A stretch of DNA of 64,000 nt from an uncultured Chloroflexia bacterium (GCA_963768655.1 CAVYIM010000004.1:256001-320000); one strand, 5' to 3'. Positions 19,317 through 42,841 are shown, counted from the stretch's first letter. Notes: generated by a model not told the origin, from the sequence alone. Numbers and translations: made by a program.

Positions 19317-19802
19317 TCAGGCCGGCTCGTCCGGCTTTGCCGGCTCGGCCGGTTCCCACCAGTTGGCCGGGGAACGCAGCGGGTTGGCGCGGGCGATCAG
19401 CTCCCGAAAGCCGGCCCGGGGCGGGGAGAAGACGTCGGCGACGAGGCATGCGGTCCCGAGTGTTCGACCTTCGTGTGGGACATCCGGCGGGATCACGTAG
19501 AGGTCGCCCTTGTGAAGCAGCCGGGTCTCGTCCCCGATGGTCAGCTCCATCTCGCCCTCCAGGACGAGGCCGAACTGCTCCTCGGGGTGGTTGTGGCCTG
19601 GGAACCCCCGGTCGGGTCCGAAGGTGACGTAGTTGAGCAGGATGTTCTGGCCGAAGATCGGCCGGAACGAGACGCCTTCGGCAAGTTCGTACAGCGGCTG
19701 GTCGTCGCGCGGGCCCATCCATGCGCCGGCGGCATCGGCCCCGGTGTCGGCAGTGGACGGCGGGCTCGTTCGGAAGTACGGCTCCGGGTCTTTGTCGGTC
19801 AC
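19317..19802 (-). CDS. Cupin domain protein
   Basis: GHNHPEEQFGLVLEG...IPPDVPHEG cupin motifs; GTGA overlap with upstream dehydrogenase. Confidence 0.88.
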   Translation of the reverse strand: MTDKDPEPYFRTSPPSTADTGADAAGAWMGPRDDQPLYELAEGVSFRPIFGQNILLNYVTFGPDRGFPGHNHPEEQFGLVLEGEMELTIGDETRLLHKGDLYVIPPDVPHEGRTLGTACLVADVFSPPRAGFRELIARANPLRSPANWWEPAEPAKPDEPA

Positions 19803-20866
19803 GGCAGGATGACGATCTTGATGGCGCCGCTCGTGGGATCGTTGAACGTGGCGAGCGCCTGCTCGTACAGGCTCAGCGAGAAGCGGTGGGTGACCATCTC
19901 GTGCACTCGCATGCGTCCCTGCTCGACAAGCGGCATGACGCGTCGCATCTCGCCCGCGCTGGCCCGGCAGCCGACGAGCTCGAGCTCGTCGAGGACCAGT
20001 CTCTGCATCGCTATCTCGACGCCGGCTGTGGGGATCCCGACGGCTGCGCACCGCCCGCCGCGCCGGAGCATGCCGATCGCCCACTGGACCGTGACCGGCA
20101 CGCCGGCGCATTCGAGGACCACGTCGACGCCGAGGCCGCGGGTCATGCCGCGGATAGCCTCGACCGGATCGCCGGCGCCCGGGTCCATGGTCTCGAAGCC
20201 GAGCTCCGCGGCCTTGGCCCGGCGGCCGGCGTTGGGCTCCACCACGATCACGCGGGAGGCTCCTCGGACCAGCGCAGCGTCGCCGGACAGGAGCCCGATC
20301 GCGCCGCCGCCGGTGATCGCGACGGCGTCGCCCGGAGCCACCCCGCCCCGGTTCGCGACGTGGAGGGCGATCGAGGCCGGGTCGATGATCGCTCCGTCCT
20401 CGAAGCTGATCCCGTCCGGCAGGGCGAAGATGGTCTTCACGCCCTGGACGACGTAGGTCGCGTCCGCGCCCTGGTAGTTGTGCCCGTACTGTTTGTGGAG
20501 CCCGGGCTTGCCGTAGTTCTCGCACAGGTTGTAGCGTCCCTCGACGCACTTCTGGCAGAAGCCGCAGGCGTCGTGGGAGGTGCCGGCGACGCGGTCGCCG
20601 ACCTTCCAGCCGTACAGATCGGAACCGGGGCCCAGGGCCACGATCTCGCCGGCCCACTCGTGGCCCGGGATGAAAGGGAAGCTGAGCGGCCAGAAGCCGG
20701 GGTAGTCGCCGCGGACGAGGTGGATGTCGGTGCCGCAGATCGAGACTGCGCGGACCCGCGCCAGGACTTGATTCGGGCCGGGGGCCGGAGTCGGCACGTC
20801 CTGGATCTCGACGCGATTTGGCTCGAGAACGACGAGGGCCTTCATGGTTGGGGCAAGATCGGGCAC
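19799..20866 (-). CDS. Zinc-dependent alcohol/polyol dehydrogenase (MDR family)
   Basis: ICGTD, GHEWAG, CGFCQKCVEGRYNLC structural Zn site, GGGAIG. Confidence 0.93.
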   Translation of the reverse strand: MPDLAPTMKALVVLEPNRVEIQDVPTPAPGPNQVLARVRAVSICGTDIHLVRGDYPGFWPLSFPFIPGHEWAGEIVALGPGSDLYGWKVGDRVAGTSHDACGFCQKCVEGRYNLCENYGKPGLHKQYGHNYQGADATYVVQGVKTIFALPDGISFEDGAIIDPASIALHVANRGGVAPGDAVAITGGGAIGLLSGDAALVRGASRVIVVEPNAGRRAKAAELGFETMDPGAGDPVEAIRGMTRGLGVDVVLECAGVPVTVQWAIGMLRRGGRCAAVGIPTAGVEIAMQRLVLDELELVGCRASAGEMRRVMPLVEQGRMRVHEMVTHRFSLSLYEQALATFNDPTSGAIKIVILP

Positions 20867-20879
20867 CGGTATTCCCTCC

Positions 20880-21770
20880 CTATGTCACGGCCAGCGGGTC
20901 GACCATCGAGCCCGTAGCGCCCCGGATCTTGAGCGGCAGGGCGACGAAGAGGAACTGGTAGACGCGATCCGCGGCGAGCGCCTCAAGATCGAGGCTTTCC
21001 ATCAGATGGATCCCGTTTTCGATCAGCAGCAGGGTGTGGACAGGCTGGGGATTGCCGGTGGGGCCCGGATCGGGGGCCGGCTGGACCTCGTACGTCTCGG
21101 TGTCCGTGCCGGTCGCGACGACGCCCCGCTCGAGGAGCCAGCGGGCGGCGGAGATGTCGGGTCCGGCGGTCTTGTTGGCGGCCATCTTCTCGGCGTCGGG
21201 CCAGAGGCTCATGTAGCCGGTCCGGATCAGGACGACGTCCCAGGGCTCAACGGTGACGCCCTCGGCCTTGCACATCGCCTCCATCTCGTCGGCTCCGACG
21301 GGCGAGCCCTTGGGGAGATGAGCCAGGCCGCGGTGACCGGCGGCATCGAGCAGGATGCCGCGGGTGAAGAATGGCGGCATCTTGGAGGCGTCGCCGAAGG
21401 TTGGCCCGAAATCGGTCAGGTTGTCGTCGGCCTTGCCGCCGCCGTACCAGTGCATGTCCTCGCCCACGGTCATGTGGGCCAGGGCGTCCAGGTGGGCCCC
21501 GGAATGCGACGTCGCCATGACGTACTCGGCCATGTAGCCGAGGCCGGCATCGTTGATGGGCCCCCACGGCTTGGCGCCGGTCACGCGGATGCCGCGCGGG
21601 GTGCGGTAGTTGAGGACCTGGAAGGGCGGGTGGCCCGGGAAGAGCGGCATGCCGGGGTACCGGGTCGCCGCCAGCGAGTAAGTGCGACCCTCGCGAACCA
21701 GTCGGGCCGCCTTGACCAGCTGCTCGGCCGGCATCCGCCCGATCAGCCCAACCTCCGTGTCTTCCGTCAT
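20880..21770 (-). CDS. Cyclase-family (kynurenine formamidase-like) metal-dependent hydrolase
   Basis: HSGAHLDALAH, RGILLD, VLIRTG, VHTLLL..GI..ME.L, PLKIRGATGS. Confidence 0.88.
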   Translation of the reverse strand: MTEDTEVGLIGRMPAEQLVKAARLVREGRTYSLAATRYPGMPLFPGHPPFQVLNYRTPRGIRVTGAKPWGPINDAGLGYMAEYVMATSHSGAHLDALAHMTVGEDMHWYGGGKADDNLTDFGPTFGDASKMPPFFTRGILLDAAGHRGLAHLPKGSPVGADEMEAMCKAEGVTVEPWDVVLIRTGYMSLWPDAEKMAANKTAGPDISAARWLLERGVVATGTDTETYEVQPAPDPGPTGNPQPVHTLLLIENGIHLMESLDLEALAADRVYQFLFVALPLKIRGATGSMVDPLAVT

Positions 21771-24037
21771 CGTTCGCTCCTCCCCGTGGCTGCCGGTACC
21801 GCTCGCTCCTGCAGCGCCCGCCAGACGCGTTCGGGTGTGAGCGGCAGATCACGGATCACGGCACCTGTGGCCTCGCGCACGGCGGCAGCCACGGCCGCCG
21901 AGACGCACAGGAGAGCGCCCTCGCTCATGCCCTTTGCGCCGTACGGGCCCGGCCCGTCGGCGTTCTCGATGAACTCGCTGTGCAGCTCCAGGGGCAGGTC
22001 CATGCTCGTCGGAATGCGGTAGTCGATCGCGCCGAGATTCCGGACCCGGCCGGACTCGTCGAAGATGTAGTGCTCCATGAGGGTGTGGCCGAGACCCATG
22101 ATGGCTGCGCCCTCGTCCTGCATCCGAACCTGGAGCGGGTTGATGGCCTTGCCGACGTCGGACACGGTCACGTGGCGGACGATGACGACGTCGCCCGTGC
22201 CCTCGTCCACCCTGGCCTCTATGGCCGTGCAGTTGAACTCGAAGAAGGCCGGCGCTCCCTGGAGCGGATGGTCGGGCTCGGCCTCCTTGCGGCTCTCGCC
22301 GTTGCCGGTCAATTCGCCGCCGAGGCTGCCGAGGCCGGCCTTGAGGACCTCCAGCACCGTCAGCTCGCGATCGGGCAGGCGGACCACTCCCGAGTCGACG
22401 GTGATCTTCTCCTCGTCGACGCCGTGCATCTGGGCCGCCATCTTGCGCAGCTGGGCCTGGATAGAGCGGCAGGCCCGCAGGACCGCGTTGCCCATCAGGA
22501 CCGTCGATCGGCTGGCCGAGGTCTGCGCGTCGTACGGGACGATGGCCGTGTCGCCCATGACCACGGTCACCCAGTCCTGCGGCGCGCCCAGCTCCTGGGC
22601 GGCGATCTGGGCGAAGACCGTCCGGGCACCCTGGCCCATGTCGGACGTTCCCGCATAGACGATGACGCTGCCGTCCGCGAGAAGGCGAACTGTGGAGTAC
22701 GAGAGGCCCGTGGTGGGCCCGGACTTGATGCCGATGGCGATGCCGCGGCCGTGGCCGGGCGGGAGCGGCGTACCCCACCCGATCAGCTCGCCGGCCTTGC
22801 GGACGGTCTGCTGCCAGTCGCCGTCGGCCGGAGTGTCCCACGGGATGAAGGCCTCGCCCTTGCGGGCCAGATTGCGCAGGCGGAACTCGAGGCGGTCGAT
22901 GCCCAGGGCCCGAGCTGCCTCGTCCAGGTTCGATTCCACGGCCCAGTTGATCTGGGGGTTGCCGAAGCCGCGGAACGCGGTGGACGGAACGGTGTGGGAG
23001 AGGATACCGCGGGCCACGATCCTGGCGGCCGGCATGCGGTAGGGTCCTGCTCCGACGTAGCTGCCCTTGTTCACGACCCGATCGGCGATGTCGACGTAGG
23101 CCCCCATCAGGTAGTCGGCCGTGACGTCCTGGAAGACCAGTGTGCCGTCGGAGCGGACGCCGGTCCGGACGTGGATCTCCGCCGCCGTGCGTCGAACCGC
23201 CTGGAATGTCTCCTCCAGGGTCAACACGAGCCGCACCGGGCGGCCGGCCCGGAGGGCCATGAAGGCGACGACGGGCTCGTACTTGATCTGCTGCTTGCCG
23301 CCGAACCCACCTCCCGGATCCGGAGCGATCACGCGCACCCTGGACAGGGGCAGGCCGAGGATGCCGGCCATGATCCTCTGGAGCCAGTAAGGATGCTGGA
23401 TGGTCGTCCAGACGGTGATGCCGTCGCCGTCCGGGGCGACCATGTAGGCGTGGGGCTCGATCGCGAAGTGGGTCACCATCGGGAAGCTGTAGCTGTTCTC
23501 GATGACGACATCGGCATGCTCGGCGTCGACGTCTCCCCAGCCAACGCGATGCACGCGCATGACGTTCGTGGCGGCCAGTGGGTCACCCGGCCGGAGGGCG
23601 CGATCCTGGACGAGCGGAGCTCCCGGGTCGAGGGCCGCCGCGATCGTGAAGATGGCCGGCAGCTCTTCGTACTCGACCCGGACCAGGCGGGCGGCGGCCT
23701 CGGCGGCGGCCTTGGTGTCGGCTGCGACCGCGGCCACGGGCTCGCCGTGGTACTTGGTCTCGCCCACCGCCAGAACGGGTCGGTCCTTGAACTGCGGCCC
23801 GTAGCGCGGCACGGGCTGGGGCAGATCGGCGGCCGTGAGGACGACGCGGACGCCCGGTACCGCCATGGCGGCTGACGTGTCGATGCTGATGATTCGCGCC
23901 CGCGCGACGGGCAGGGTGACGAGCTTGGCGTAGAGCTCGCCGGGAAGGTGGATGTCGGCCACGTACTGCTGCTGGCCGGTGACGCGGGTGTCTCCGCCGG
24001 AGCGCCACGGCGAGGCACCGACCTTGAATGTGCTCAT
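21767..24037 (-). CDS. Xanthine dehydrogenase-family molybdopterin-binding large subunit
   Basis: HFAIEPH, GGGFGGK, AFRGFG, DMGQG, ASRST, GPYGAKGMSE (catalytic Glu). Confidence 0.93.
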   Translation of the reverse strand: MSTFKVGASPWRSGGDTRVTGQQQYVADIHLPGELYAKLVTLPVARARIISIDTSAAMAVPGVRVVLTAADLPQPVPRYGPQFKDRPVLAVGETKYHGEPVAAVAADTKAAAEAAARLVRVEYEELPAIFTIAAALDPGAPLVQDRALRPGDPLAATNVMRVHRVGWGDVDAEHADVVIENSYSFPMVTHFAIEPHAYMVAPDGDGITVWTTIQHPYWLQRIMAGILGLPLSRVRVIAPDPGGGFGGKQQIKYEPVVAFMALRAGRPVRLVLTLEETFQAVRRTAAEIHVRTGVRSDGTLVFQDVTADYLMGAYVDIADRVVNKGSYVGAGPYRMPAARIVARGILSHTVPSTAFRGFGNPQINWAVESNLDEAARALGIDRLEFRLRNLARKGEAFIPWDTPADGDWQQTVRKAGELIGWGTPLPPGHGRGIAIGIKSGPTTGLSYSTVRLLADGSVIVYAGTSDMGQGARTVFAQIAAQELGAPQDWVTVVMGDTAIVPYDAQTSASRSTVLMGNAVLRACRSIQAQLRKMAAQMHGVDEEKITVDSGVVRLPDRELTVLEVLKAGLGSLGGELTGNGESRKEAEPDHPLQGAPAFFEFNCTAIEARVDEGTGDVVIVRHVTVSDVGKAINPLQVRMQDEGAAIMGLGHTLMEHYIFDESGRVRNLGAIDYRIPTSMDLPLELHSEFIENADGPGPYGAKGMSEGALLCVSAAVAAAVREATGAVIRDLPLTPERVWRALQERAVPAATGRSER

Positions 24038-24510
24038 TCGTGGGCTCCTTCCGCCACGGCCAGAACGGCCTCGGCGATCTGGAGGTAGCAGGCGCATCGG
24101 CACAGGTTCCCGGACAGGCCTTCTTGAACTTCCCCGAGCGTGGCATGCGGATGCGCGGACAGCAGGGCCTGCGCGGCCATCAGCTGGCCGGGCGTGCAGA
24201 AGCCGCACTGGACCGCGCCCTTTTCCAGGAACGCCTGCTGGAGAGGACTGAGCTGCCCATCGCCGCCCAGCCCTTCGACCGTGGAGACCTCGGCGCCGTC
24301 GGCCTCGACCGCCAGCATCAGGCAGCTGTCCACGGCCCGGCCGCTCACGAGAACGGTGCAGGCGCCGCACTCACCGACGTCGCAGCACTCCTTGGTGCCG
24401 GTCAGCTCCAGCTCGTCGCGGAGGACGTCGAGGAGTGTCCGGTTGACGGCCACCTCGATGGCCCGGCGACGGCCGTTTACGGTGATCTCGATCGGAAGCG
24501 TGTCAACCAT
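24034..24510 (-). CDS. Xanthine dehydrogenase-family 2x[2Fe-2S] small subunit
   Basis: GTKECCDVGECGACTV, SCL, QCGFCTPG, GNLCRCACY. Confidence 0.95.
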   Translation of the reverse strand: MVDTLPIEITVNGRRRAIEVAVNRTLLDVLRDELELTGTKECCDVGECGACTVLVSGRAVDSCLMLAVEADGAEVSTVEGLGGDGQLSPLQQAFLEKGAVQCGFCTPGQLMAAQALLSAHPHATLGEVQEGLSGNLCRCACYLQIAEAVLAVAEGAHE

Positions 24511-25375
24511 TGGTCCGTTCCTCCGCCAGACGGTCGATGGCCGTCTGGAGCGCCCGCCATCCGAGCACGCGGAGCATCGCCAGGCGGTACTCCGGGCTGG
24601 CCCGCATCGATCGTTTGGATGGGCTGGCGCCCGCGAACATCCCTTCGAGGATGCGCGCCTTCGCCTCGTGGGCCGCCTTTGGATCCGCGAGCATGCCCGT
24701 CTCGTCGGCGAACAGAACCGGCCGCGGCCCCACGCTGCCGTAGGCCAGCCGCGTGGCGCCGCCTTCGTCGACCGAGCAGCAGAGCGTGACCGAGGCCAGG
24801 TCGTGGCCTCGCCTCCGGGCCCGGCGGAGGTGGACCGCGCCGGTGCGGTGGGTCGGAACCGGCAGCTCGATCCCGGTCACCAGCTCACCGCGGGCCAGCG
24901 TCGTCACTCCGGACTCGACGAAGAACTCGTTGATGGGGATGCGCCGCGTTCCACGCGGGCCTGCGGCAACCACGGAGGCCCCGTAGACCAGCAGCGGCGG
25001 GGCGGTGTCGGCGGCCGGTGACGCGTTGCAGATGTTGCCGGCCAGCGTGGCCCGGTTGCGGATCTGGACCGAGCCGACGATCGCCGCCGCCTCGCCCAGG
25101 GCGCGGAAATGGCGTCGTACGAGCGGGCTGTCGGCCACGTCCGCCATCACGGTCGCAGCGCCGATCGTCACGACGCCGGCCTCCTCGCGGATCCCCGAAC
25201 ACAGGTCGGCGATCCGCTTGACGTCGATCACCACGGTCGGCTTCTCCGCGCCGCTGCGCAGACCGATGACGAGGTCGGTGCCGCCCGCCAGAAGGCGCGC
25301 GTCGGAGCCGTGCGCATCCAGCAGAGATACGGCCTCGGCCACCGTTGTCGGCCTCTTGTAGGCGAACGTCTGCAT
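24503..25375 (-). CDS. Xanthine dehydrogenase-family FAD-binding medium subunit
   Basis: LAGGTDL, GSVQIRNRATLAGNICNASPAAD, ASPEYR. Confidence 0.93.
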   Translation of the reverse strand: MQTFAYKRPTTVAEAVSLLDAHGSDARLLAGGTDLVIGLRSGAEKPTVVIDVKRIADLCSGIREEAGVVTIGAATVMADVADSPLVRRHFRALGEAAAIVGSVQIRNRATLAGNICNASPAADTAPPLLVYGASVVAAGPRGTRRIPINEFFVESGVTTLARGELVTGIELPVPTHRTGAVHLRRARRRGHDLASVTLCCSVDEGGATRLAYGSVGPRPVLFADETGMLADPKAAHEAKARILEGMFAGASPSKRSMRASPEYRLAMLRVLGWRALQTAIDRLAEERTNG

Positions 25376-25395: not shown

Positions 25396-26283
25396 TCAGA
25401 GGACCTTGTCGACCTCGTCGAGCAGCACCTGCGGGTTGGCTGCCCGGACGAAGTAGTAGGGGCGGTCCGAGAACTTGGTGACCCACTTCGCGCGTTCGCG
25501 CCGCAGAGGCTCCGTGTCGACCATCGGCATGGGCCAGTCCGCGGCAAGAAGCTCATTGAGCAGGAAGTAGTTCTGGAGCGAATGGAGCGTCTGGAACTGG
25601 CGCTCGAACGGGATCATCTCGCCCAGGCTCGGATCGAAGTTGCCGTCGATGGCGGGCACGACCACGACGTCGACGTTGCTCGGCTCCGTGTAGAGCTCCC
25701 ACGTGGGCATGCCGCCGAAGAACTTGGCGACGCCGGCCTCGGGGGCCGCCTTGTCGGCGCGCTCGGTGCCCTCGGTGCGCTTCTTGATGAACGGCTCCTT
25801 GGAACCCTTCACCGCGCGTCCCGACGTGTCGACGACGGTCGTCTCGGTGGAGACCAGCAGCGCGCCGCGCCGGCAGGCCTCGATCTGACCCATGCTCTTG
25901 CCGTGGTTCGATTCGCCGCCGAGGAACATCACGGTCTTGCCGTGATAGCGCACCGCGGAGGCATGGAACGGGTGCAGCCCGGTCGCCTCCATGCGCAGGG
26001 CGAGCAGCGCGACGACGACCTTCTGGATCGGACCGGCCGGCCAGGGGCCGTTGAACGTCATCGTCCGGCCGTCGTAGGAGATCGACTTGTCGCCATCCTG
26101 GAGCCAGACGATGTCGGGCTTCGGCAGGGTCACCTCGGGCGAGATGCGCACGTCGGCGAGCCGGTAGTTGAGGAAGTTCAGGTCCTCGAGGACGTGCTCG
26201 CGGGGCTGACTCCCGTACACGTCCACCCGCAGCCGCGCGGTCTCGGCGGACATCTCCTCCGACAGTTGCAGTTGCTCGTTCAT
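25396..26283 (-). CDS. Hypothetical protein with a divergent HPr-kinase-like P-loop fold
   Basis: FHASAVRYHGKTVMFLGGESNHGKS...RRGALLVSTETTVVD follows the HPrK-related pattern HAS...GxxxxGKS...G..l.sDD; strong codon bias. Confidence 0.55.
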   Translation of the reverse strand: MNEQLQLSEEMSAETARLRVDVYGSQPREHVLEDLNFLNYRLADVRISPEVTLPKPDIVWLQDGDKSISYDGRTMTFNGPWPAGPIQKVVVALLALRMEATGLHPFHASAVRYHGKTVMFLGGESNHGKSMGQIEACRRGALLVSTETTVVDTSGRAVKGSKEPFIKKRTEGTERADKAAPEAGVAKFFGGMPTWELYTEPSNVDVVVVPAIDGNFDPSLGEMIPFERQFQTLHSLQNYFLLNELLAADWPMPMVDTEPLRRERAKWVTKFSDRPYYFVRAANPQVLLDEVDKVL

Positions 26284-27255
26284 GGTCTCCTTCCGCTGGC
26301 GGCCCGTGCCGCCTTCGCATCAGTGCCCGGGTTCGATCCGATCGGCCTCGGTCCGGGTGGTCTGGGCTGTTGTGGCGGAGTCGCGCCAGACGTCGTCGGG
26401 CGGCGACGTGAGTCCACGGACGGCGTCCGCGTCCAGGACTCAGGCCTGGCTTTGTTGGCGCGCGATCTCCGCGCTCGTGGCGCGGCCGTCCGATTTGGCG
26501 ACGGCATCGACGCAACCGTCAGCCGATGGTCGGCTTCGGCGCCTCCCAGGGGAGGCCTGCTCGGATCGAGGACGACCGCTTCGTCAGATGCCGACGGCTC
26601 GTCGACCCACGTCTCGCGGAACATGTCGCCGGCCGCCTTGAAATGGAGGTGGTATGCCGCCGCGGCCAGGTCGGGATCGCGGCTGCGAAGGGCCGTCAGA
26701 ATCGGGACGTGGAGGTCGGCGATATGGCGTCGGGTTCACGCCGGGGACTACAAGGGTGATGTACGTTCGGGAGAGCGGCTCAAGATGCCGCCAGACCCGC
26801 TCCAAAGTCTTGTTGCGAGCTATTTGGATGACGCGGGCATGGAAGGCGACGTCGATCACGGCCTCGGTGTGGGTGTCGCCCGCATCGGCCGCTCGCTGCA
26901 TCTCTTCCACGTAGCCCTGAAGCTCTTCGAGGTCCGCGTCCGACATCCGGGGCAGGGCGAGCCGCGCGCCGAGGGACTCGAGCTCGGCCCGAATCTCATA
27001 CGCCTCGAGCAGCTCGGACTTGCTCGGATGCCGAACGCGAGCCCCGCGGAATGCCGAAATCTCGACGATCCCGAGCGCCTCGAGGTCGCGCAGAGCTTCT
27101 CGCACGGGAGCCTGGCTCGTGCCAAGCTCCCGTGCGACTCGGGTTTCCACGATTCGAGAGCCCGGAGGGTAGCCGCCGGCCAGAATCTCCTGCAGCAGGC
27201 GATCCTTGACTTGATCGCTCAGGGGGCTGCGTGAGATCTGGAGGTCCGGCGACAT
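26280..27255 (-). CDS. GntR-family (FadR/FCD) transcriptional regulator with a 1-bp frameshift near 26733
   Basis: PGSRIVETRVARELGTSQAPVREAL HTH, DVAFH; removing one G from GGG 26732-26734 gives HIADLHVPILTALRSRDPDLAAAAYHLHF and a stop overlapping the next ATG. Confidence 0.88.
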
Positions 27256-30271: not shown

Positions 30272-30313
30272 AAGTGCCGTTCGGCACTTTTCATCGATCA
30301 TCGATTATTGATG
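30272..30313. promoter_or_regulatory. Candidate operator region between the divergent operons
   Basis: AAGTGCCG-TT-CGGCACTT (30272-30289), then ATCGAT-C-ATCGAT-T-ATTGAT (30293-30312) in an AT-richer patch. Confidence 0.55.
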
Positions 30314-30347
30314 CTCTATGAGTATCCATGAACTGGAGGCTGGAGGC

Positions 30348-33862: not shown

Positions 33863-34759
33863 ATGGAGCAGGTGACGCCCAACATCTTCACGGAAACCAG
33901 GCTGCGCGGCTGCAACCCGAGCTTTGTCACGACGTCCGAAGGTGTCGTCGTGATCGACACTCCCCAGCTGCCGACGAAAGCCGTCGCGATGCGCAAGGAG
34001 GCGGAATCCCACGGCCCGATCCGCTACATCATCAACACCGAGCATCACGTCGACCACATCTTCGGCAACTACTATTTCAAGGGCGCGGGCACGGTCGTCA
34101 ACCACCAGGGCGTCTACGACAACTTCATGGTCGTCTACCCCGAACTGGACCCCTTCGCCTACGCGTACGAGGCCCTTCCGACGCCGGCCGGCAAGGGCAC
34201 CGATCTCGACGATCCCGCGGGTGTCGCGCTGTGGCCGGACCGGGACGAGTACTACGCCGACCCAAACAAGGGCACCGTCGTCTTCACCGGAGACCTGACG
34301 CTCCACGTCGGCGACCACACGTTCCATTGCCTCCACACCCCGGGCCACACCCCCGGCCAGCTCGCGGTCCACGTCCCGGAGGAGCGCACGGTATTCACCG
34401 GCGACACGATCTTCTCCGAGTGCCAGACCTGGCTCATGACGTCGAACGTGGACCAGTGGATCGCATCCCTGGACCGCATCCGCTCCCTCGATGTCGATCG
34501 CGTCGTCCCCGGACACGGCCCGATCACCACGAAGGCCTACGTGGACACTCAACGGGCGACGCTGATGGAGTGGAAGACGGCCGTGGCGCTGGCTGTGGCC
34601 AAAGGCTGGTCTCGCGAGGAGACGGTGGCTCGGGTCAACTTTGCGGATCGTTGCCCGGTCGACATCGGCCAGGGCTACATGATGAGTTACATCCAGACGC
34701 TGAATGCCGGATCGCTGTGGGACAAGCTGACCGCCGTCCCGGCTGCGTCGGCGCGTTGA
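33863..34759 (+). CDS. Metallo-beta-lactamase fold hydrolase
   Basis: VVIDTP, NTEHHVDHIFGN, TPGHT, FTGD, VPGHG. Confidence 0.9.
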   Translation: MEQVTPNIFTETRLRGCNPSFVTTSEGVVVIDTPQLPTKAVAMRKEAESHGPIRYIINTEHHVDHIFGNYYFKGAGTVVNHQGVYDNFMVVYPELDPFAYAYEALPTPAGKGTDLDDPAGVALWPDRDEYYADPNKGTVVFTGDLTLHVGDHTFHCLHTPGHTPGQLAVHVPEERTVFTGDTIFSECQTWLMTSNVDQWIASLDRIRSLDVDRVVPGHGPITTKAYVDTQRATLMEWKTAVALAVAKGWSREETVARVNFADRCPVDIGQGYMMSYIQTLNAGSLWDKLTAVPAASAR

Positions 34760-34809
34760 CTGCCGTCCGTGGCGCGACAGCTCCCGCATCCAAGGAGAGT
34801 GACACCCCC

Positions 34810-37137
34810 ATGGCCGACTGTGGCACTAAGACCTACAAGGCCGCCAAGCGCTACATCTACGCCTGGGGCGGCGGCAAGGCCGAGGGCAACGGCGGGATGA
34901 AGGATCTGCTGGGCGGCAAGGGTGCCGGCCTGGCGGAGATGACCAACGCGGGTCTGCCGACTCCCCCCGGATTCACCATCACCACCGAAGCCTGCAACGA
35001 CTATTTCGCCGCCGGCAAGACTCTCCCGGCCGGCCTCTGGGACGACGTCCTGGCCGCGGTGAAGGTCGTGGAGACTCGGACCGGCAAGGGCTTCGGCGAC
35101 GCGAAGAATCCGCTCCTGGTCTCCGTCCGCTCCGGCGCCAAGTTCAGTATGCCGGGCATGATGGACACCGTCCTCAACCTTGGCCTCAACGAGACCACGC
35201 TCCAGGGCCTCATCGCCTTCACCGGCAACGAGCGCTTCGGCTGGGACGCCTATCGCCGCTTCATCAGCATGTTCGGCCGGATCGTGCTCGACGTCCCGTC
35301 CGAGCGCTTCGACAAGCCGCTCGAGGCCGCCAAGAAGAAGCACGGCAAGGACGCCAAGGACACGGACCTCGCGGCTGCTGATCTGATGGCCCTGGCAGCC
35401 AGGTATAAGGAGATCGTGCGCGAGGCCGCCGGCCGCGAGTTTCCCGACGATCCCAACGAACAGCTGGACCTGGCCATCAAGGCCGTCTTCGCCTCGTGGT
35501 TCGGCAAGCGCGCCCACGACTACCGCGAGCACGAGAAGATCCCGCACGACCTCGGCACTGCGGTCAACGTGGTGACCATGGTCTTCGGCAACATGGGCGA
35601 CGACTCCGGGACAGGCGTCGCCTTCACACGCGACCCCAACACGGGCGAGAAGGTCCTCTACGGCGAGTACCTGGTCAACGCCCAGGGCGAGGACGTGGTG
35701 GCGGGCATCCGCACGCCGTCCCCGATTGCGGCCCTGGCCCAGGACATGCCCAAGGTCTACGTCGAGTTCACGAAGATCGCCGACAAGCTCGAGAAGCACT
35801 ACAAGGACGTCCAGGACCTCGAGTTCACCATCGAGCGCGGCCACCTGTACATGCTCCAGACCCGCAGCGCCAAGCGGACGGCCGCTGCCGCGATGCGGAT
35901 CGCCATCGACATGGTCCAGGAGCAGGTGATTACCCGCGAGGAGGCAGTCCAGCGCGTAGGCCGATCCCTGGCGAATCCGCCGCGGATCTCGGTCGATCGC
36001 CATGACCGGCGGACCGCACTGACTGTCGGTACGCCCGCCGTTCCGGGCGTGGCATGGGGTGAGATCGTCACATCGCCGGACGCCGCCGTGACGGCGGCAC
36101 GAGCGGGCAAGCGCGTGATCCTGACACGGCCCGAGACGTGCCCGGACGATGTCCACGGCATGGAGGTCTCTCAGGGGATCCTGACCTCGACGGGCGGCAA
36201 GACTTCACATGCCGCCGTAGTTGCTCGCGAGTTCGGGATCCCGGCGGTCGTTGGCGCAGGTGATCTGCAGGTCGGCGACGGGGTCGTCACGATCAACGGT
36301 CGTCTCTTCAAGGACGGCGACACCATCACTATCGACGGATCCACCGGGGAGGTCTTCGCCGGCGAGGTCCAGGGCAGCACCGTCGTCGTGCCCGAGGCAG
36401 CCACCCTGCTTGCCTGGGCGAAGGATGTCGGCATCCCAATCGGTGAGCCTGCAGGCGGGCCGGCCGTCGAGGCACCGGCACCGGCGGCGGCCCCGGCCAA
36501 GCCGGCGGCCCCGGCTGAGCTTAGCGCCGACGATGTTCTCCGTGGCCTCATGATCAAGGGACAGGTAACCCCTGAAGCGCTCGCCGTGGCGCTGGCCAGC
36601 CCACCGGACGAAGTCGCGCCACTCATCGACGGTCTCGTGGCCGAGGAACTGGCCGAGACTGTGGCCGAGGCGTCCCGGCTGACTCCGGAGGGCAGGCTGC
36701 GGGCGCTGGATGTCTTCGCCGCCGACCGCGAACGAGCCGGGGGCGAGGCGGCCTGCGTCGCCGCGCTGGACCAGTTCATCGTGCTCGACGGCAGGATGAA
36801 GGACCTGGTCACGGCCTGGCAGATTCGGGACGCCGCCAACCAGGTTTTCAACGACCACTCTGACGCCGCCTACGACGCATCTGTTCTCGATCGGCTCGGC
36901 GACATCCACGTCGGTGTAGCGGAGTTGCTGGACCTGCTCGGGACCAAGCTCTGGCGGATGGCTTGCTACCGCGAACGGCTGGAGCGTGCCTTGGCCGCTG
37001 CCCGGGCCGGCGATCCCAGGTTCGTGGCGGGGGTGCGGGTCGACAGCTACCACAGCGTCTGGTTCGAACTGCACGACGACCTCATCCGGCTGTGCGGTCG
37101 CACGCGCGCCGACGAAGTCGCCGCGGGTCGGGCCTGA
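34810..37137 (+). CDS. Truncated pyruvate,phosphate dikinase-like protein (ATP-grasp plus His swivel) fused to an Rv1126c-like C-terminal domain
   Basis: LLGGKGAGL, PLLVSVRSGAKFSMPGMMDTVLNLG, NAQGEDVVAGIRTP, DLEFTIE..LYMLQTR, GGKTSHAAVVARE; then an Ala/Pro linker and a domain ending DSYHSVWFELHDDL; no PEP/pyruvate TIM barrel. Confidence 0.88.
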   Translation: MADCGTKTYKAAKRYIYAWGGGKAEGNGGMKDLLGGKGAGLAEMTNAGLPTPPGFTITTEACNDYFAAGKTLPAGLWDDVLAAVKVVETRTGKGFGDAKNPLLVSVRSGAKFSMPGMMDTVLNLGLNETTLQGLIAFTGNERFGWDAYRRFISMFGRIVLDVPSERFDKPLEAAKKKHGKDAKDTDLAAADLMALAARYKEIVREAAGREFPDDPNEQLDLAIKAVFASWFGKRAHDYREHEKIPHDLGTAVNVVTMVFGNMGDDSGTGVAFTRDPNTGEKVLYGEYLVNAQGEDVVAGIRTPSPIAALAQDMPKVYVEFTKIADKLEKHYKDVQDLEFTIERGHLYMLQTRSAKRTAAAAMRIAIDMVQEQVITREEAVQRVGRSLANPPRISVDRHDRRTALTVGTPAVPGVAWGEIVTSPDAAVTAARAGKRVILTRPETCPDDVHGMEVSQGILTSTGGKTSHAAVVAREFGIPAVVGAGDLQVGDGVVTINGRLFKDGDTITIDGSTGEVFAGEVQGSTVVVPEAATLLAWAKDVGIPIGEPAGGPAVEAPAPAAAPAKPAAPAELSADDVLRGLMIKGQVTPEALAVALASPPDEVAPLIDGLVAEELAETVAEASRLTPEGRLRALDVFAADRERAGGEAACVAALDQFIVLDGRMKDLVTAWQIRDAANQVFNDHSDAAYDASVLDRLGDIHVGVAELLDLLGTKLWRMACYRERLERALAAARAGDPRFVAGVRVDSYHSVWFELHDDLIRLCGRTRADEVAAGRA

Positions 37138-37223: not shown

Positions 37224-37592
37224 ATGTTCACGCGAATTGACCGGGCCGAGACTGCGATCACGCCCATGCCCGGTCGTAACTGGCACGCTTACATCGGCCC
37301 TCAGACCGCCCCGACCAGGCACCTCTCGATGGGCGTCTCCGTCTACGAGCCAGGAGTTCGTCCCACGGGCCACGTGCACGAGGCCGCGGAGGAGACGGTC
37401 TACTGCCTCTCCGGGCGCGGCAGGCTCGTCTGCGATGCGGGACCGGCCGAGCTCGAGTCCGGCGTCGCGGTCTTCATCCCGGCCGGGACGTTCCACGCCA
37501 CCGAGTGCGACGGCCCGGAGCCGCTCGAACTGCTTTGCGTCTTCACGCCGCCCGTGGTGCCGGGCTCGTACGAGAAGAAGACACAATCATGA
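37224..37592 (+). CDS. Cupin domain protein
   Basis: GHVHEAAEETVYCLSGRG...IPAGTFH; C-terminal PPVVPGSYE. Confidence 0.88.
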   Translation: MFTRIDRAETAITPMPGRNWHAYIGPQTAPTRHLSMGVSVYEPGVRPTGHVHEAAEETVYCLSGRGRLVCDAGPAELESGVAVFIPAGTFHATECDGPEPLELLCVFTPPVVPGSYEKKTQS

Positions 37593-38476
37593 AGACGACT
37601 GCCCAGGACCCGGAAATCGGCCGGCTGGAAGAGGCTGCCCGCCGTATTCGCGTGGAGATCATCCGCGCCGTGAACCAGGCCAAGGCCGGGCACCTGGGCG
37701 GGCCGCTCTCGGCGGCTGACGTGCTCGCCGCGCTGTACTTCCGCGTCATGCGCATCAGGCCCGAAGAACCAGGCTGGCCGGATCGCGACCGGTTCGTTCT
37801 CTCCAAAGGCCACTCGTCGATCGGGCTGTATGCCGCGCTGGCCCTGCGTGGCTACTTCCCCGTCGAGGAGCTCGCGACCTTCGATGCCGCCGGAACCCGG
37901 CTGCAGGGGCATCCGGACATGACCAAGCTGCCCGGGCTGGACATGTCCACCGGATCGCTCGGCATGGGCATCTCGGCCGGTCTCGGGATCGCCCTCGGAG
38001 CGCGCCTGACCGGTCGGAGCGACGTTCGGACATACGTCATGCTCGGCGACGGCGAATGCCAGGAAGGCGAGGTCTGGGAGGCGGCAATGGTCGGGGCCCG
38101 GTACCGCCTGGACACACTGATCGCGATCGTGGACCACAACAAGCTCCAGCAGTACGGCTGGGCCGGTGACGGACCCGACGGCCGCCTGCCACCGGAAGAG
38201 CCGGACGAGCTCCTGGCCAAATGGACAGCCTTCGGCTGGCGAGTCCTGGAGGTCGACGGCCACGACATGGCCGCCGACGTAGAAGTGCTCGAGCGCGCGC
38301 GCGAAGGCGACGGCCGGCCCACGGTCGTGATCTCCCACACCATCAAGGGCAAGGGCGTCTCATTCATGGAGGGCCACTACTACTGGCACACGAGGCCGCT
38401 CACGGCGGACGAGTTCGCCACGGCGATGGCCGAGCTCGGTGAGCCGGTGGCGGCGACGAATGGAGGCGCCCGATGA
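37589..38476 (+). CDS. Transketolase N-terminal (ThDP-binding) subunit
   Basis: GHLGG, DRFVLSKGH, LQGHP, TGSLG, GDGECQEG...N, TIKGKG. Confidence 0.93.
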   Translation: MKTTAQDPEIGRLEEAARRIRVEIIRAVNQAKAGHLGGPLSAADVLAALYFRVMRIRPEEPGWPDRDRFVLSKGHSSIGLYAALALRGYFPVEELATFDAAGTRLQGHPDMTKLPGLDMSTGSLGMGISAGLGIALGARLTGRSDVRTYVMLGDGECQEGEVWEAAMVGARYRLDTLIAIVDHNKLQQYGWAGDGPDGRLPPEEPDELLAKWTAFGWRVLEVDGHDMAADVEVLERAREGDGRPTVVISHTIKGKGVSFMEGHYYWHTRPLTADEFATAMAELGEPVAATNGGAR

Positions 38477-39441
38477 CGCTGCCGCTCGGTCACGCCATGC
38501 GCGAAGTGTTCGGCGAGACCGTCGCCGAGCTGGCCGACACCGATCCCCGCATCGTCATGCTCGACGCCGACGTCGGCAGCTCCACGAGGGCTGACATCTT
38601 CGAGCACCGCCATCCGGATCGCTATCTCCAGATGGGCATCGCCGAGCAGAACATGCTCGGAGTGGCCGCCGGCCTGGCGACAGTGGGTCTGATCCCGTTC
38701 GTCAGCACGTTCGTCGCCTTCGCCGTGGTCAGGCCCCTGGACCAGATCCGCGTCCTGATCGCCCAGACGGGCTTGAACGTGAAGATAACTCCGAGCTACG
38801 CGGGGCTCTTCACCGGAGTGACCGGCAAGACGCACCTGATCGTGGACGACGTCTCGATCATGCGGGCGATGCCGGGCATGGTCACGGTCTGCCCGGCCGA
38901 TGACATCGAGGCGGCCCAGGCACTGCGGTGGTGCGCTTCCTACCAGGGGCCCGCCTACATCAGGCTCGTTCGCGACGCGACGCAGCGGCTCTTCGACGGC
39001 GCCTACGCGTTCGAGTTCGGGCGGGCCGTCGTTGTCCGCGAGGGTCGCGACGTGACGCTGATCAGCACCGGCACGCAGACGCCGCGCGTCGTCGACGCCG
39101 CGGAGATGCTTGCCGCGCAGGGCATCGAAGCGCACGTCCTCCACGTTCCGACGATCAAGCCACTCGACGTGCCGGCGATCGTCGCAGCCGCGGCCAGGAC
39201 CGGCTGCGTGGTCACCGTGGAAGAGCACACGGTCATCGGCGGTCTCGGCGGCGCCGTAGCCGAGGCCCTGTCCGAGCATCGCCCGACCCTGGTCAAACGG
39301 CTGGGCATGCAGGACGTCTTCGGCGAGTCGGCATCCAACGCGGCGCTGCTCGAGCTGTACGGCCTGTCCGCGGCCCGCGTATCGGAACAGGTCGCGGCGA
39401 TCTGCCGAGCCAGAGGAAAGGAGGCGGCCGCGCGGAGTTGA
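38473..39441 (+). CDS. Transketolase C-terminal subunit
   Basis: GIAEQNM, DQIR, GKTH, GPAYIRL, TIKPLD, TVEEH..GGLG; ATGA overlap. Confidence 0.93.
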   Translation: MTLPLGHAMREVFGETVAELADTDPRIVMLDADVGSSTRADIFEHRHPDRYLQMGIAEQNMLGVAAGLATVGLIPFVSTFVAFAVVRPLDQIRVLIAQTGLNVKITPSYAGLFTGVTGKTHLIVDDVSIMRAMPGMVTVCPADDIEAAQALRWCASYQGPAYIRLVRDATQRLFDGAYAFEFGRAVVVREGRDVTLISTGTQTPRVVDAAEMLAAQGIEAHVLHVPTIKPLDVPAIVAAAARTGCVVTVEEHTVIGGLGGAVAEALSEHRPTLVKRLGMQDVFGESASNAALLELYGLSAARVSEQVAAICRARGKEAAARS

Positions 39442-39876: not shown

Positions 39877-41088
39877 ATGTCGAAGACCGTCTTGTTGATC
39901 GGCACGCTGGATACCAAGGGCCGAGAGTACGCCTACGTCCGCGACCTGATCCGGGCTCGCGGGCTGAACACATTCGTGCTGGACGCCGGGGTCCTGGGCG
40001 AACCGGTGTTCACGCCCGACAGCCCCGCCGCCCTCACTGCCGAAGCCGGCGGGGGCTCGCTCGCCGAGCTCCGCGAGCGGCACGATAGAGGCCACGCGAT
40101 CGAGATCATGGGTCTGGGCGCGCGCGTCCTCGCGGTCAAGCTCGCCGCCGAGGGCAAGTTCGACGGCGTCATCGCCATGGGCGGCTCGGGTGGCACGTCC
40201 ATCGGGAGCACAGCCATGGCGGCGCTTCCGGTGGGCATGCCCAAGTTGATCGTGTCAACCATGGCCTCGGGCGACGTCGGCCCATACGTCGGCGTCAAGG
40301 ACATCACGATGATGTACTCCGTCGTCGACGTGTCCGGGCTCAACCGCCTGTCCCGCCGGATCTTCGCCAACGCCGCCGGGGCCATCGGCGGCATGGTCGA
40401 GCAGACGATGCCGAAGGCCGAGGACAAGCGGCTCATCGGCGCCACGATGTTCGGCGTCACGACGCCGTGCGTCGACCGTGTGCGGGCGCGATTTGAGGCA
40501 GAAGGCTACGAGATGCTCGTCTTCCACGCGGTCGGAAGCGGCGGCCGCTCCTTCGAGGCGCTGATCACGGACGGCGTCTTCGACGGAGTCGTGGACGCAA
40601 CGACGACAGAGTGGTGCGACGAGCTGGTCGGCGGCGTCCTGTCGGCCGGACCGGAGCGCCTGGATGCCGCCGCCAAGAAGGGCATCCCGCAGGTCGTCTC
40701 GCTCGGCGCACTCGACATGGTGAACTTCGGCCCGAGAGACACGCTTCCGGCCAAGTTCGAGAAGCGGAACATCTACATCCACAACCCGGAAGTGACACTC
40801 ATGCGCACAACGCCCGAAGAGTGCGCGAAGCTCGGCGAGATCATCGCCAAGAAGCTCAACAAGACCACCGGGCCCACCGCGCTGTTCGTGCCCCTCAAGG
40901 GCGTGAGCGCGATCGACGTCGAGGGCGGGCCTTTCTACGATCCCGCCGCGGACAAGGCGCTCTTCGAGGCCATTCGCAAACACATCGATCGCTCGAAGGT
41001 CGATCTGGTCGAGCTCGACCTCGCCATCAACGATCCCGCTTTCGCCGACGCGATGGTCGACCGCCTGCAGAAGATGCTCAAGAAGTAA
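39877..41088 (+). CDS. Tm-1-like ATP-binding domain protein (UPF0261)
   Basis: IGTLDTKGRE, GGSGGT, LPVGMPKLIVST, SVVDVSGLN, TMFGVTTPCV, FHAVGSGG, GALDMVNFG, HNPEVTLMRT. Confidence 0.92.
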   Translation: MSKTVLLIGTLDTKGREYAYVRDLIRARGLNTFVLDAGVLGEPVFTPDSPAALTAEAGGGSLAELRERHDRGHAIEIMGLGARVLAVKLAAEGKFDGVIAMGGSGGTSIGSTAMAALPVGMPKLIVSTMASGDVGPYVGVKDITMMYSVVDVSGLNRLSRRIFANAAGAIGGMVEQTMPKAEDKRLIGATMFGVTTPCVDRVRARFEAEGYEMLVFHAVGSGGRSFEALITDGVFDGVVDATTTEWCDELVGGVLSAGPERLDAAAKKGIPQVVSLGALDMVNFGPRDTLPAKFEKRNIYIHNPEVTLMRTTPEECAKLGEIIAKKLNKTTGPTALFVPLKGVSAIDVEGGPFYDPAADKALFEAIRKHIDRSKVDLVELDLAINDPAFADAMVDRLQKMLKK

Positions 41089-41130
41089 GGGCAGCCAGAC
41101 ACCCAGGAAATCGCCAAAGGAGGAAGGGCC

Positions 41131-41979
41131 ATGCCATTCATCGCGCGCGCCGAAGTCGTGCGGCGACTCCGTGCGCAGGCTGCCACCGGCAAGCCGATCG
41201 TGGGCTGCGGTGCCGGCACTGGCATCTCGGCCAAGATGGCCGAGGCCGGCGGCTGTGACCTGATCATCATCTACAACTCGGGACGCTACCGGATGGCCGG
41301 CCGAGGCTCCCTCGCCGGCTTACTCGCCTACGGCGACGCCAATGGCATCGTCGTCGAGATGGCCTCCGAGGTGCTGCCGGTCGTCAAGGACGTGCCAGTC
41401 CTGGCGGGCGTCAACGGTACCGACCCGTTCCGGCTCATGCCGGTCTTTCTCAAGCAGCTCAAGGAAATCGGCTTCGACGGCGTCCAGAACTTCCCGACCG
41501 TCGGCCTCATCGACGGCGGCTTCCGGGCCAACCTGGAAGCGACCGGGATGGGCTACGACAAGGAGATCGAGACGATCCGGCTGGCGCACGAGATCGATCT
41601 CTTCACCTCCCCGTACGTCTTCAATGCAGACGACGCGAAGGCAATGGCCAAGGCCGGCGCCGACCAGTTGGTGGCCCACGTCGGCCTCACCACGGCCGGA
41701 ACCATCGGCGCCGGAGTGGCCCTGACACTGGACCAGGCGATCGACCGAGTCATGGCGGTGGTCGAGGCCGGACGGTCGGTCCGCTCGGATATCCTCGTCC
41801 TTTGCCACGGCGGGCCCTTCGACGAGCCCGAGAACGTGGGCGTAGCGCTGGCGCGGATGCCGGGCGTCCAGGGTTTCTTCGGTGCTTCCAGCATCGAACG
41901 CCTGCCCACCGAGCGTGGGATCCGCGCACAGGTGGAGGAGTTCAAGCGGCTGAAGGTCGCCCCCGCCCCCAGGGCGTAG
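41131..41979 (+). CDS. TIM-barrel signal transduction / PEP hydrolase-family protein
   Basis: [70 protein letters not shown]. Confidence 0.92.
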
Positions 41980-42103
41980 GCAGACGGGCCGGGTTCATCG
42001 GAAGGCGGCGGGCCCTGAGGATCGGCGACCCGCCGCCTGGTCTTGTGGCCAGCCGGTGCGCGTGGGGAGCGTCGCCGGCGGCACTGATAGGAGGCTCTGA
42101 TCG

Positions 42104-42841
42104 ATGGAGATCGACGTCGCGCTCGTGCCGATGGTGGCTCGCGCCTGGAAAGCCACCGTCTGTATCGTCATCGACGAACTGCGCGCGAGCTCCACCATCA
42201 CTACGATCCTGGACGGGGGCTGTTCTCGGCTGTACGTCACAGCCGGCCTGGATGCGGCACGGCGCCTCGCCCGGCAGCACGATGGTCTGCTCGTCGGCGA
42301 ACGGGGCGGCTCGGCGCCGGCGGGTTTCGACTTCGATAACTCGCCAGCCGCCCTGTCGCGCGCCGACCTGAAAGGCAGGGTCGTGATCCTTTCCACATCC
42401 AACGGAACCAGAGTGCTGGGCTGGGTAAGGGACGCGCCCGCGACCCTGGTCGGCTGCCTGCTGAACGCCCGCGCCTGTGCCGAGGCGGCGCTGGAACTGG
42501 CCGGCTCCTTGAATGCTCGAATTGGCATCGTGTGTGCGGGCACGCTGGGTGTCTTCGCGCTGGACGACGGGATCACGGCAGGCGTCATCGTGGAGCGCCT
42601 CGTGGAGACGATCGCGTCGCGGGGCGGCGTCTACGAACTGACGGAGGCCGCGGTGGCGGCCGTGCAGCTGCGAGCCAGCTATGGCGATCTGTTGACTCCA
42701 CTCCAGAGCTCGGTATCAGGCAGGCTGCTGGCCAGACTGGGCACCCACGACGACGTTCCCTTCTGCGCCCGGCCGGACGTCAGCACGACCGTCCCGATCC
42801 TGCGCCCGGTTTCGCCGCTCGTCGTCGAGCCCTTCGTGTAG
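42104..42841 (+). CDS. 2-phosphosulfolactate phosphatase (ComB)-family phosphatase
   Basis: VIDELRASSTI, GERGG..GFDFDNSP, STSNGT, LLNA, CAG..G.FALDD. Confidence 0.88.
   Translation: MEIDVALVPMVARAWKATVCIVIDELRASSTITTILDGGCSRLYVTAGLDAARRLARQHDGLLVGERGGSAPAGFDFDNSPAALSRADLKGRVVILSTSNGTRVLGWVRDAPATLVGCLLNARACAEAALELAGSLNARIGIVCAGTLGVFALDDGITAGVIVERLVETIASRGGVYELTEAAVAAVQLRASYGDLLTPLQSSVSGRLLARLGTHDDVPFCARPDVSTTVPILRPVSPLVVEPFV

Follow-up and report, generated by a model that had tools for sequence, protein, structure and literature searches.

Positions 19317 to 42841 of a 64,000-nucleotide stretch of DNA from an uncultured Chloroflexia soil bacterium (GCA_963768655.1, CAVYIM010000004.1:256001-320000; the whole stretch is called the window) carry a gene cluster that is real, conserved, co-regulated and undescribed. 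Open reading frames (ORFs), the frame plot and Pfam/NCBIfam searches resolved this 23.5 kb region into 21 genes in two divergent arms, and every gene named by a preceding sequence-only reading was found at its place and on its strand. The left arm (minus strand) encodes a DUF1097 membrane protein, a phospho-histidine (His) enzyme, a GntR-FCD regulator, a 295-aa protein, the subunits XdhM, XdhS and XdhL of an XDH-family molybdenum hydroxylase, a cyclase, a zinc-dependent dehydrogenase (Zn-ADH) and a cupin. The right arm (plus strand) encodes a transaldolase (TAL), an aldehyde dehydrogenase (ALDH) of the (methyl)malonate-semialdehyde dehydrogenase (MMSDH) type, a short-chain dehydrogenase (SDR), a metallo-beta-lactamase (MBL) hydrolase, a pyruvate phosphate dikinase (PPDK) fusion, a further cupin, a split transketolase (TK), a UPF0261 (Tm-1-like) protein, a PF09370 TIM barrel and a ComB protein. 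With a probability of roughly 55 %, the cluster serves the O2-independent catabolism of an oxygen-rich hydroxylated heterocycle via phosphorylation, oxidation and hydrolysis under GntR-FCD control.

Co-inheritance and common regulation

The 295-aa protein (25396..26283, minus strand), described below as a miniature phosphoenolpyruvate carboxykinase (mini-PEPCK), served as seed for a gene-neighbourhood analysis of the best 80 of 152 genome loci, with flanks of at most 10 kb, many of them shorter; counts here and below are of loci, a few of which are duplicates. The genes co-occur, as the sequence-only reading would require: XdhM was present in 78 loci, the His enzyme in 76, XdhL in 74, GntR in 71 and the PPDK ATP-grasp domain in 55. 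SDR (49), TAL (46), MBL (44), cyclase (28), Zn-ADH (26), ALDH (25) and DUF1097 (23) were of middle frequency, TK (8), Tm-1 (5), TIM (4) and ComB (1) were rare. The idea that the combination forms a unit holds insofar as the genes are co-inherited; universal are only the His enzyme, its ATP-grasp partner and a molybdenum or tungsten oxidoreductase. Twelve of 36 genomes of the genus contained the seed. TIM (9 genomes) and cyclase (11, one at only 48 %) were restricted to these twelve, ComB and a second Tm-1 gene were each present in 10 of the 12 and in 0 of the 24 others, while TAL was found in 11/12 versus 2/24 and a close TK in 9/12 versus 3/24. Because the genomes are incomplete (67-94 %) and related, these counts are patterns, not tests. 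Genome G009 holds the core with TAL, ALDH, SDR and MBL and lacks cyclase, TIM, ComB and the second Tm-1 gene, which therefore form a second branch. The lower modules, namely TAL, TK, Tm-1/TIM, cyclase and ComB, can be exchanged. Beyond the genus, two phylum samples of 401 genomes each were screened for the His-enzyme subfamily, which occurred in 34 genomes of the host phylum and in 13 of the second sample.

The two arms are co-regulated and constitute one regulon, in agreement with the earlier proposal, since the operator between them is conserved upstream of the same genes where the cluster is rearranged. Two overlapping sites of the form ATCGAT-N-ATCGAT lie at 30289..30316; with at most 1 mismatch, 91 of 164 loci contained the pattern, 147 times in total and for the most part no more than 350 bases upstream of the His enzyme (60), TAL (58), SDR (24) or DUF1097 (20). 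A matrix trained on 71 sites from genome loci retrieved only the two inter-arm sites from the 3.37 Mb host genome and matched in 24 of 80 held-out metagenome loci versus 0 in each of 20 shuffles. G006 and G022 have a second site ahead of the TK unit, and locus L031 has one ahead of Tm-1. The matrix gave no site in 8 of 8 loci with free-standing TAL or cupin-TK, in the checked loci of the tungsten-type aldehyde oxidoreductase (AOR) kind, or before the window's cofactor genes and its second Tm-1 gene. In the window alone the pattern with 2 mismatches was not above chance (3 found, 2.0 expected), and it is the comparison across genomes that exceeds chance; a promoter and terminator scan yielded 0 promoter-like sites and terminators near chance. 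The GntR-FCD protein (26433..27255, minus strand) presumably binds the inter-arm operator, which is a ready handle for an effector screen. The divergent spacer also contains, at 30073-30148, two head-to-tail copies of a GC-rich unit of roughly 35-41 bases; the whole genome has just two occurrences of the unit's 20-base core.

The tight packing noted before was confirmed, with gaps of -13 to 152 bases between neighbours and three exceptions of 321 (His enzyme/DUF1097), 256 (divergence) and 435 bases (TK/Tm-1). One frameshift each interrupts the genes of the His enzyme (~28070), GntR (~26730) and ALDH (~32509). These are likely assembly indels, judged from single intact ORFs in the same-genus genomes G006, G009, G022 and G024 and from the house ppdK of the host and a beta-galactosidase gene of the window, which are likewise split.

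Phosphotransfer proteins and the molybdenum enzyme

The His enzyme (27280..29107, minus strand) is a substrate-binding and swivel-His subunit of the HpeH/PpsA type. The model of an intact orthologue (pLDDT 91) matched rifampin phosphotransferase (RPH, 5FBU) over ~600 columns (TM 0.62), comprising the RPH-type substrate domain and the C-terminal swivel domain, with no ATP-grasp domain. Aligned to RPH, the catalytic His of the swivel domain was kept in 102 of 103 full-length His enzymes. This architecture without ATP-grasp is reported for HpeH in the accessible text of PMC12167813. Plasmid proteins assigned through gene context to the CreH-/HpeH-type are 24-25 % identical to the His enzyme, which forms a clade of its own in a quick, midpoint-rooted tree with long outgroup branches, so no order of events is claimed. 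HpeHI, CreHI and PpsAB have the ATP-grasp-free subunit, the RPH fold and the conserved His in common with the window system, but they are coupled to a P450 or a carboxylase, whereas the window's dikinase is coupled to XDH or AOR enzymes, and the ATP partner in the window is a fusion with a His domain of its own and a winged-helix-like tail.

This fusion (34810..37137, plus strand) consists of a PPDK ATP-grasp domain, the swivel-His domain and the tail, which we take to be a homologue of Rv1126c; the pyruvate-binding barrel is absent, and the swivel His was kept in 43 of 43 fusions. It resembles VadK (Rv1127c), a PPDK cut likewise after the His domain (the intact fusion orthologue scored 499 bits versus a cut-off of 456 for PRK05878). 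The accessible text on VadK describes a regulatory His kinase that autophosphorylates, with Rv1126c as operon partner (PMC13400623); there the small partner is separate, whereas the window version is a single chain inside a catabolic operon. The ATP side varies between loci, from the VadK-like fusion of the window to a full PPDK or a lone ATP-grasp protein, the latter in the AOR and FAH subtypes and not in the window. The ATP-grasp DNA of the fusion (34762-35930) is 90 % identical to the house ppdK of the host (contig C5, about 377500-378750), and its first 500 bases 95-100 %; G024 has the same house-ppdK-like type, most relatives share about 45 % in protein. The domain, nearly a copy of that of house ppdK, was exchanged by recent replacement or gene conversion, which fits a generic phosphate donor. 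VadK-type proteins in general may be ATP donors for swivel-His small-molecule kinases. On a Diaphorobacter plasmid (L251, 9927-14727) a His enzyme lies beside a similar pair of genes (37.5 % and 40-44 %), a small partner and a truncated PPDK, with no molybdenum enzyme.

The 295-aa protein had been labelled HPrK-like. No Pfam or NCBIfam family matched it, Hpr_kinase_C included, and structure and profile searches place it nearer to ATP-PEPCK. ATP-PEPCK was the best match of its model (pLDDT 90) in Foldseek and VIA, covering both domains (Z 11.3, rmsd 5.1, 249 residues), while HPrK matched the C-terminal part only (residues 101-295, Z about 10); the profile aligned ungapped with residues 176-239 of Thermus PEPCK (E 0.004). 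Among 6853 candidates 2838 homologues were found, distant ones being named from Thermococcus (including Thermococcus sibiricus), Thermotogota, WOR-3 and Nitrososphaerales; a plasmid search gave no match, and the nearest clusters in an atlas search were unnamed or auto-named PEPCK family. Fold, GE-x-x-K...H-x-S-A motif and P-loop are those of the ATP-PEPCK/HPr kinase superfamily, but ATP-PEPCK has about 530 residues, and Trp and Gln replace its Tyr and Lys. In the alignment the metal ligands and acidic residue (K88 in 173/185, H107 in 185/185, E147 in 186/186) and the P-loop are conserved. Within the YAGEIKK motif, Tyr and the first Lys, which we take to be the CO2/oxaloacetate site, are exchanged for Trp (182/185) and Gln (185/185), and Thr-Glu stands where the family presumably has Asp-Asp. 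Mini-PEPCK likely transfers a phosphoryl group with a nucleotide; carboxylation is less likely, the residue roles being assumed.

Seeding with the His enzyme yielded 29 loci, of which 7 contained mini-PEPCK, 16 an FAH hydrolase, none both and 6 neither; conversely, FAH occurred in 1 of 160 mini-PEPCK loci. A DUF4202/HD protein was considered as a phosphatase replacing mini-PEPCK and rejected as too thin a case: it was present in 4 loci, never together with mini-PEPCK, but 27 loci had neither.

XdhL (21767..24037), which retains the Glu of the GxKGMSEG motif, the 2Fe-2S small subunit (24034..24510) and the FAD medium subunit XdhM (24503..25375) follow on the minus strand. XdhL is about equally near to 4-hydroxybenzoyl-CoA reductase and nicotinate dehydrogenase. 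Counted over 90 mini-PEPCK loci of at least 12 kb, 75 had only XDH, 13 only AOR, none both and 2 neither; tungsten-type AORs replace the XDH enzyme in low-GC lineages, which are probably anaerobic. AORs act mainly on aldehydes, so their swap for XDH points to a masked aldehyde as the plausible site of oxidation, e.g., C6 of a 4-pyranone or pyridone. AOR loci often hold two AORs, cyclases, a cupin, a DRE-TIM protein, Tm-1/TIM and DUF1097, and often also GAPDH/PGK, E1/E2 or BKACE.

The sequence-only reading had not recognised the combination as a described pathway, and our search of open-access papers found no description of the whole pathway. The pairing of a dikinase with a molybdenum hydroxylase, however, already has one genetic precedent, the 3hpd cluster of Ensifer adhaerens HP1. 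As far as the accessible text of that study goes, the activity of the XDH-family enzyme HpdA, a 3-hydroxypyridine hydroxylase, needs orf9, which is PPDK-like, and orf10, a PEP-utilising mobile subunit; the regulator is of the GntR type, no intermediate was detected, and the role of orf9 and orf10 was left open (bioRxiv 10.1101/2020.01.08.898148). By this published description the XDH-family enzyme, the adjacent dikinase pair and GntR recur in the window, whereas the SRPBCC subunit and the O2-dependent maleamate pathway of 3hpd are seen neither there nor among the recurrent neighbours; mini-PEPCK, the His-bearing ATP-grasp fusion, the hydrolases, TAL/TK and MMSDH are features of the window cluster.

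Lower modules and the predicted route

TAL (30348..31442, plus strand) keeps the Schiff-base Lys and the Asp/Asn/Arg frame. At the two acid-base positions, which we take from alignment to correspond to the Glu of TAL and the Tyr of FSA, it has Gln (70/71 sequences) and Met (72/72); SF-TAL-type and classical TALs presumably keep the Glu. The split TK (37589..38476 and 38473..39441, plus strand) is coupled to an intact cupin (37224..37592, plus strand). In its motif H-x-G-x-x-x-G-E-D-G, whose His and Asp we assume to bind the phosphate and the 2-hydroxyl of the aldehyde, His is replaced by Tyr in 21/21 and Asp by Thr, Ala or Asn in 20/21 sequences; the C-terminal chain of the window has Tyr and Thr. 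The ALDH (31477..33010, plus strand) was classified through its intact orthologue, which scored 617 bits versus the TIGR01722 cut-off of 448.5, as CoA-acylating MMSDH. Together with this adjacent enzyme, the residue losses in TAL and TK would imply unphosphorylated 2-deoxy-keto-acids that are cleaved to malonate semialdehyde.

The lower myo-inositol pathway (IolC, IolJ, IolA) ends similarly, with a keto-acid being cleaved to malonate semialdehyde that an IolA-type enzyme oxidises, but the window is without IolC kinase and IolJ. On a Clavibacter plasmid, a TAL homologue with 51 % identity closes an iol cluster that includes an IolA-like ALDH gene and still has iolC and an aldolase. Screening 301 genomes from another phylum for the atypical TAL produced 2 matches, both inside the system described here, so a single plasmid carries the iol link. 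The accessible text of PMC6741124 reports that some inositol users lack IolJ, and the accessible part of PMC7736159 holds nothing on an inositol transaldolase; if the route outlined below is true, an aldolase-like TAL may fill this gap. The use of TAL and TK on non-standard sugars recalls the sulfo-TAL and sulfo-TK systems, but sulfo genes are absent from the neighbours of the window system. Sulfoquinovose and apiose were rejected as substrates, as no matching kinases, isomerases or transporters were among the recurrent neighbours; one RLP in one locus scored below the OiaX cut-off.

TAL lies beside a hydroxy-acid (semialdehyde) reductase in three free-standing loci, and cupin-TK-MMSDH is a free module in three loci, with cupin-TK in a fourth, short one. 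These four loci (L200-L203; MMSDH in three) carry the cupin and the atypical split TK with a sugar ABC importer and no operator, and represent a separate deoxy-sugar-acid module. On a Shinella plasmid (L189, 9771-15857) a Gln/Met TAL gene separates E1 from E2 in the genes of an acetoin-dehydrogenase-like complex. L199 and L183 share a cluster of a cobalamin-binding protein, a URO-D-like methyltransferase and Dak1, possibly for methylated-sugar catabolism; L199 additionally has a second Gln/Met TAL, a split TK and a formate-THF ligase.

For ring opening two hydrolases are at hand, the MBL-fold protein (33863..34759, plus strand), presumably a lactonase, and the cyclase-family amidohydrolase (20880..21770, minus strand), 35.5 % identical over its full length to the cyclase Pkc beside dhpH on plasmid pAO1. 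The accessible text of PMC6214936 proposes that cyclases of the Pkc/HpoH type open trihydroxypyridine. The SDR (33057..33842, plus strand) has gluconate 5-dehydrogenase as best models and the Zn-ADH (19799..20866, minus strand) scyllo-inosose 3-dehydrogenase IolM as best NCBIfam model, both below cut-off. The left-arm cupin (19317..19802, minus strand; Cupin_2, start uncertain) is accessory, being found in 7 of 80 loci. The UPF0261 protein (39877..41088), of a family termed uncharacterised in the accessible part of PMC5028733, is followed on the plus strand by the PF09370 TIM barrel (41131..41979), close to Mll9387 (PDB 2P10), and the ComB-family phosphatase (42104..42841). The DUF1097 protein (29429..30055, minus strand; Pfam E 5e-4, weak; orthologue E 1e-8) is probably the uptake system.

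The outline of phospho-activation, molybdenum-dependent oxidation, ring hydrolysis and C2/C3 transfer in the sequence-only reading is supported, with a change in order: phosphorylation likelier comes first. The ATP-grasp fusion would load phosphate on the swivel His, and the HpeH-type subunit would move it to a ring hydroxyl, making the ring electron-poor. The molybdenum enzyme (tungsten AOR in other lineages) would then, with water, oxidise a masked-aldehyde ring carbon to a lactone or lactam. The phosphate would be removed by ComB or the tyrosine-phosphatase-family (PTP) protein, or passed to ADP by mini-PEPCK, which might alternatively decarboxylate and phosphorylate a beta-keto acid. The ring would be opened to a polyketo acid, by MBL in the case of a lactone and by the cyclase in that of a lactam, and SDR, Zn-ADH and cupin would turn the product into an unphosphorylated 2-deoxy-keto-acid. 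This acid would be cleaved by TAL (C6 acid, C3 unit) or by TK (C5 acid, C2 unit), with release of malonate semialdehyde, which ALDH would convert to acetyl-CoA. The Tm-1/TIM pair would act between dephosphorylation and formation of the keto-acid, in the cyclase branch. A 2-methyl ring would give the C6 acid for TAL, a bare ring the C5 acid for cupin and TK. Reasoning backwards through SDR reduction and lactone or lactam hydrolysis would point to the C6-oxidised form of a 3-hydroxy-4-pyranone or pyridone. This maltol-type substrate class fits on paper across all six steps and is put forward tentatively. More doubtful is the full claim: a first genetic O2-independent route for these plant and sugar-heating products, of such age that it runs on XDH enzymes in Chloroflexota and Actinomycetota from soil and on tungsten AORs in archaea and anaerobes, with mini-PEPCK as a new family recovering the phosphate as ATP and with first metabolic roles for Tm-1/TIM, DUF1097 and the Gln/Met TAL.

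Several observations speak against the proposed route. Its weakest point is the role of mini-PEPCK; six of the 29 His-seeded loci have neither this protein nor FAH. Close characterised orthologues are missing: the His enzyme is 24-25 % identical to CreH/HpeH-type proteins, the cyclase 35 % to Pkc, no annotated plasmid protein exceeds 40 % identity to XdhL, and the SDR, Zn-ADH and FAH assignments are best matches below curated cut-offs. TAL (2/24) and TK (3/24) occur in genomes without the system and therefore may serve a by-product. AOR loci are without operator, TAL and MBL and may use a different substrate, and the loci counted are related and partly redundant, so the exclusivity counts are not independent.

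Four other explanations were weighed. The substrate may be a simple 3-hydroxypyridine or a vitamin B6 vitamer that is phosphorylated, C-hydroxylated once or twice to a di- or trihydroxypyridine and hydrolysed by the HpoH/Pkc-like cyclase, with TAL and TK serving side chains or another feed. The 3hpd precedent, the resemblance of the cyclase to pAO1 Pkc beside dhpH, the nearest plasmid XdhL proteins (40 %) among maleamate-pathway-like genes, the match to the nicotinate dehydrogenase chains of E. barkeri (202 + 163 bits, comparable to 336 for 4-hydroxybenzoyl-CoA reductase) and a weak MBL match to 4-pyridoxolactonase (E 3e-5) agree with this; however, maleamate genes and omega-amidase are not among the recurrent neighbours, the cyclase is missing from most loci (present in 28/80; 36/90), SDR and MBL being commoner, and trihydroxypyridine would yield 2-oxoglutarate, for which TAL, TK and MMSDH are not needed. 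We regard it as rather improbable. A protein phosphorelay, in which a VadK-like His kinase and an HPrK-like Ser/Thr kinase regulate or mature the molybdenum enzyme, is unlikely: the His enzyme has a complete RPH-type substrate domain, the ATP side is freely swapped (lone ATP-grasp, full PPDK, house ppdK copy) as would be expected of a donor of phosphate, the P-loop protein still has the N-terminal domain and the metal ligands of PEPCK, and the partner oxidoreductase switches family. These points outweigh the equally truncated VadK, which autophosphorylates and acts as a regulator in the accessible text of PMC13400623, the HPrK match of the P-loop domain (Z about 10) and the lack of a phosphorylated intermediate in the accessible 3hpd text.

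Dikinase and mini-PEPCK might also carboxylate a ketone or phenol, with an enol phosphate being made, CO2 added and ATP recovered as in PEP synthase followed by PEPCK. Although the PEPCK fold and the Mn and P-loop residues are conserved and the His enzyme lies beside mini-PEPCK in 84 of 90 loci, including the deepest tree branches, the presumed CO2/oxaloacetate site is altered to Trp and Gln as given above, and 22 of the 29 His-seeded loci have no nearby mini-PEPCK, which makes this explanation very unlikely. Least probable is a mosaic in which a dikinase-XDH operon and a sugar-acid operon have their promoter region in common and serve separate pathways. TAL and cupin-TK-MMSDH do stand alone in other genomes, and few loci have TK, Tm-1, TIM or ComB inside 10 kb of the seed (8, 5, 4 and 1 of 80). 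Yet detached TAL, SDR, Tm-1 and TK units carry the same operator, which the 8/8 free-standing TAL/TK loci are without; TIM (9), cyclase (11), ComB (10) and the second Tm-1 gene (10) are confined to the 12 seed-bearing genomes of 36, and the ATP-side subunit is encoded in the right arm.

If the phosphorylation-first route is true, it would explain the dependence of a molybdenum hydroxylase on a dikinase left open by the 3hpd study, define a new branch of the PEPCK superfamily and give testable roles to DUF1097 and to UPF0261 and PF09370, which in bacteria correspond to the two halves of plant Tm-1. Some hosts of related clusters are in culture, among them Thermomicrobium roseum, which carries one on a plasmid, and Thermococcus sibiricus has a homologue of mini-PEPCK.

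Related subtypes and flanking genes

The Thermomicrobium roseum plasmid (L187, 12490-24835) and loci L215-L217, L220 and L236-L245 represent a second subtype without mini-PEPCK, composed of the His enzyme, a lone ATP-grasp protein, XDH, FAH, ABM and cyclases, sometimes with DUF4202 and Tm-1/TIM. FAH, ABM, BKACE, E1/E2 and DRE-TIM proteins are alternative lower enzymes in related loci; the substrates of all these families are diketo, beta-keto or acyloin compounds, which favours the proposed route. Related clusters (L096, 12621-13151, and several AOR loci) repeatedly contain a C_GCAxxG_C_C protein that is absent from the window.

As stated by the sequence-only reading, the cofactor genes XdhC, MocA, MoaA/C and MOSC and a second UPF0261 gene (14894..16267, minus strand) adjoin the arms. 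XdhC, a MocA-like cytidylyltransferase and a tyrosine-phosphatase-family gene form a group of support genes at 16515..19190 (plus strand); the phosphatase gene (18351-19190), next to the left arm, is an addition to the earlier inventory. The closest relatives are labelled Candidatus Limnocylindrales or Chloroflexota. Beyond the right arm a 650-aa ORF (44527-46479, minus strand) with coding-type GC3 and no Pfam or NCBIfam match lies upstream of an F420-type LLM gene, followed by the frameshift-split GH2 beta-galactosidase (46766-50279, minus strand) inside a sugar ABC cluster. A 24-base string recurs unchanged at 8 places on one strand of the host-genome contigs C4, C5, C7 and C9 and is probably part of a multicopy insertion element.

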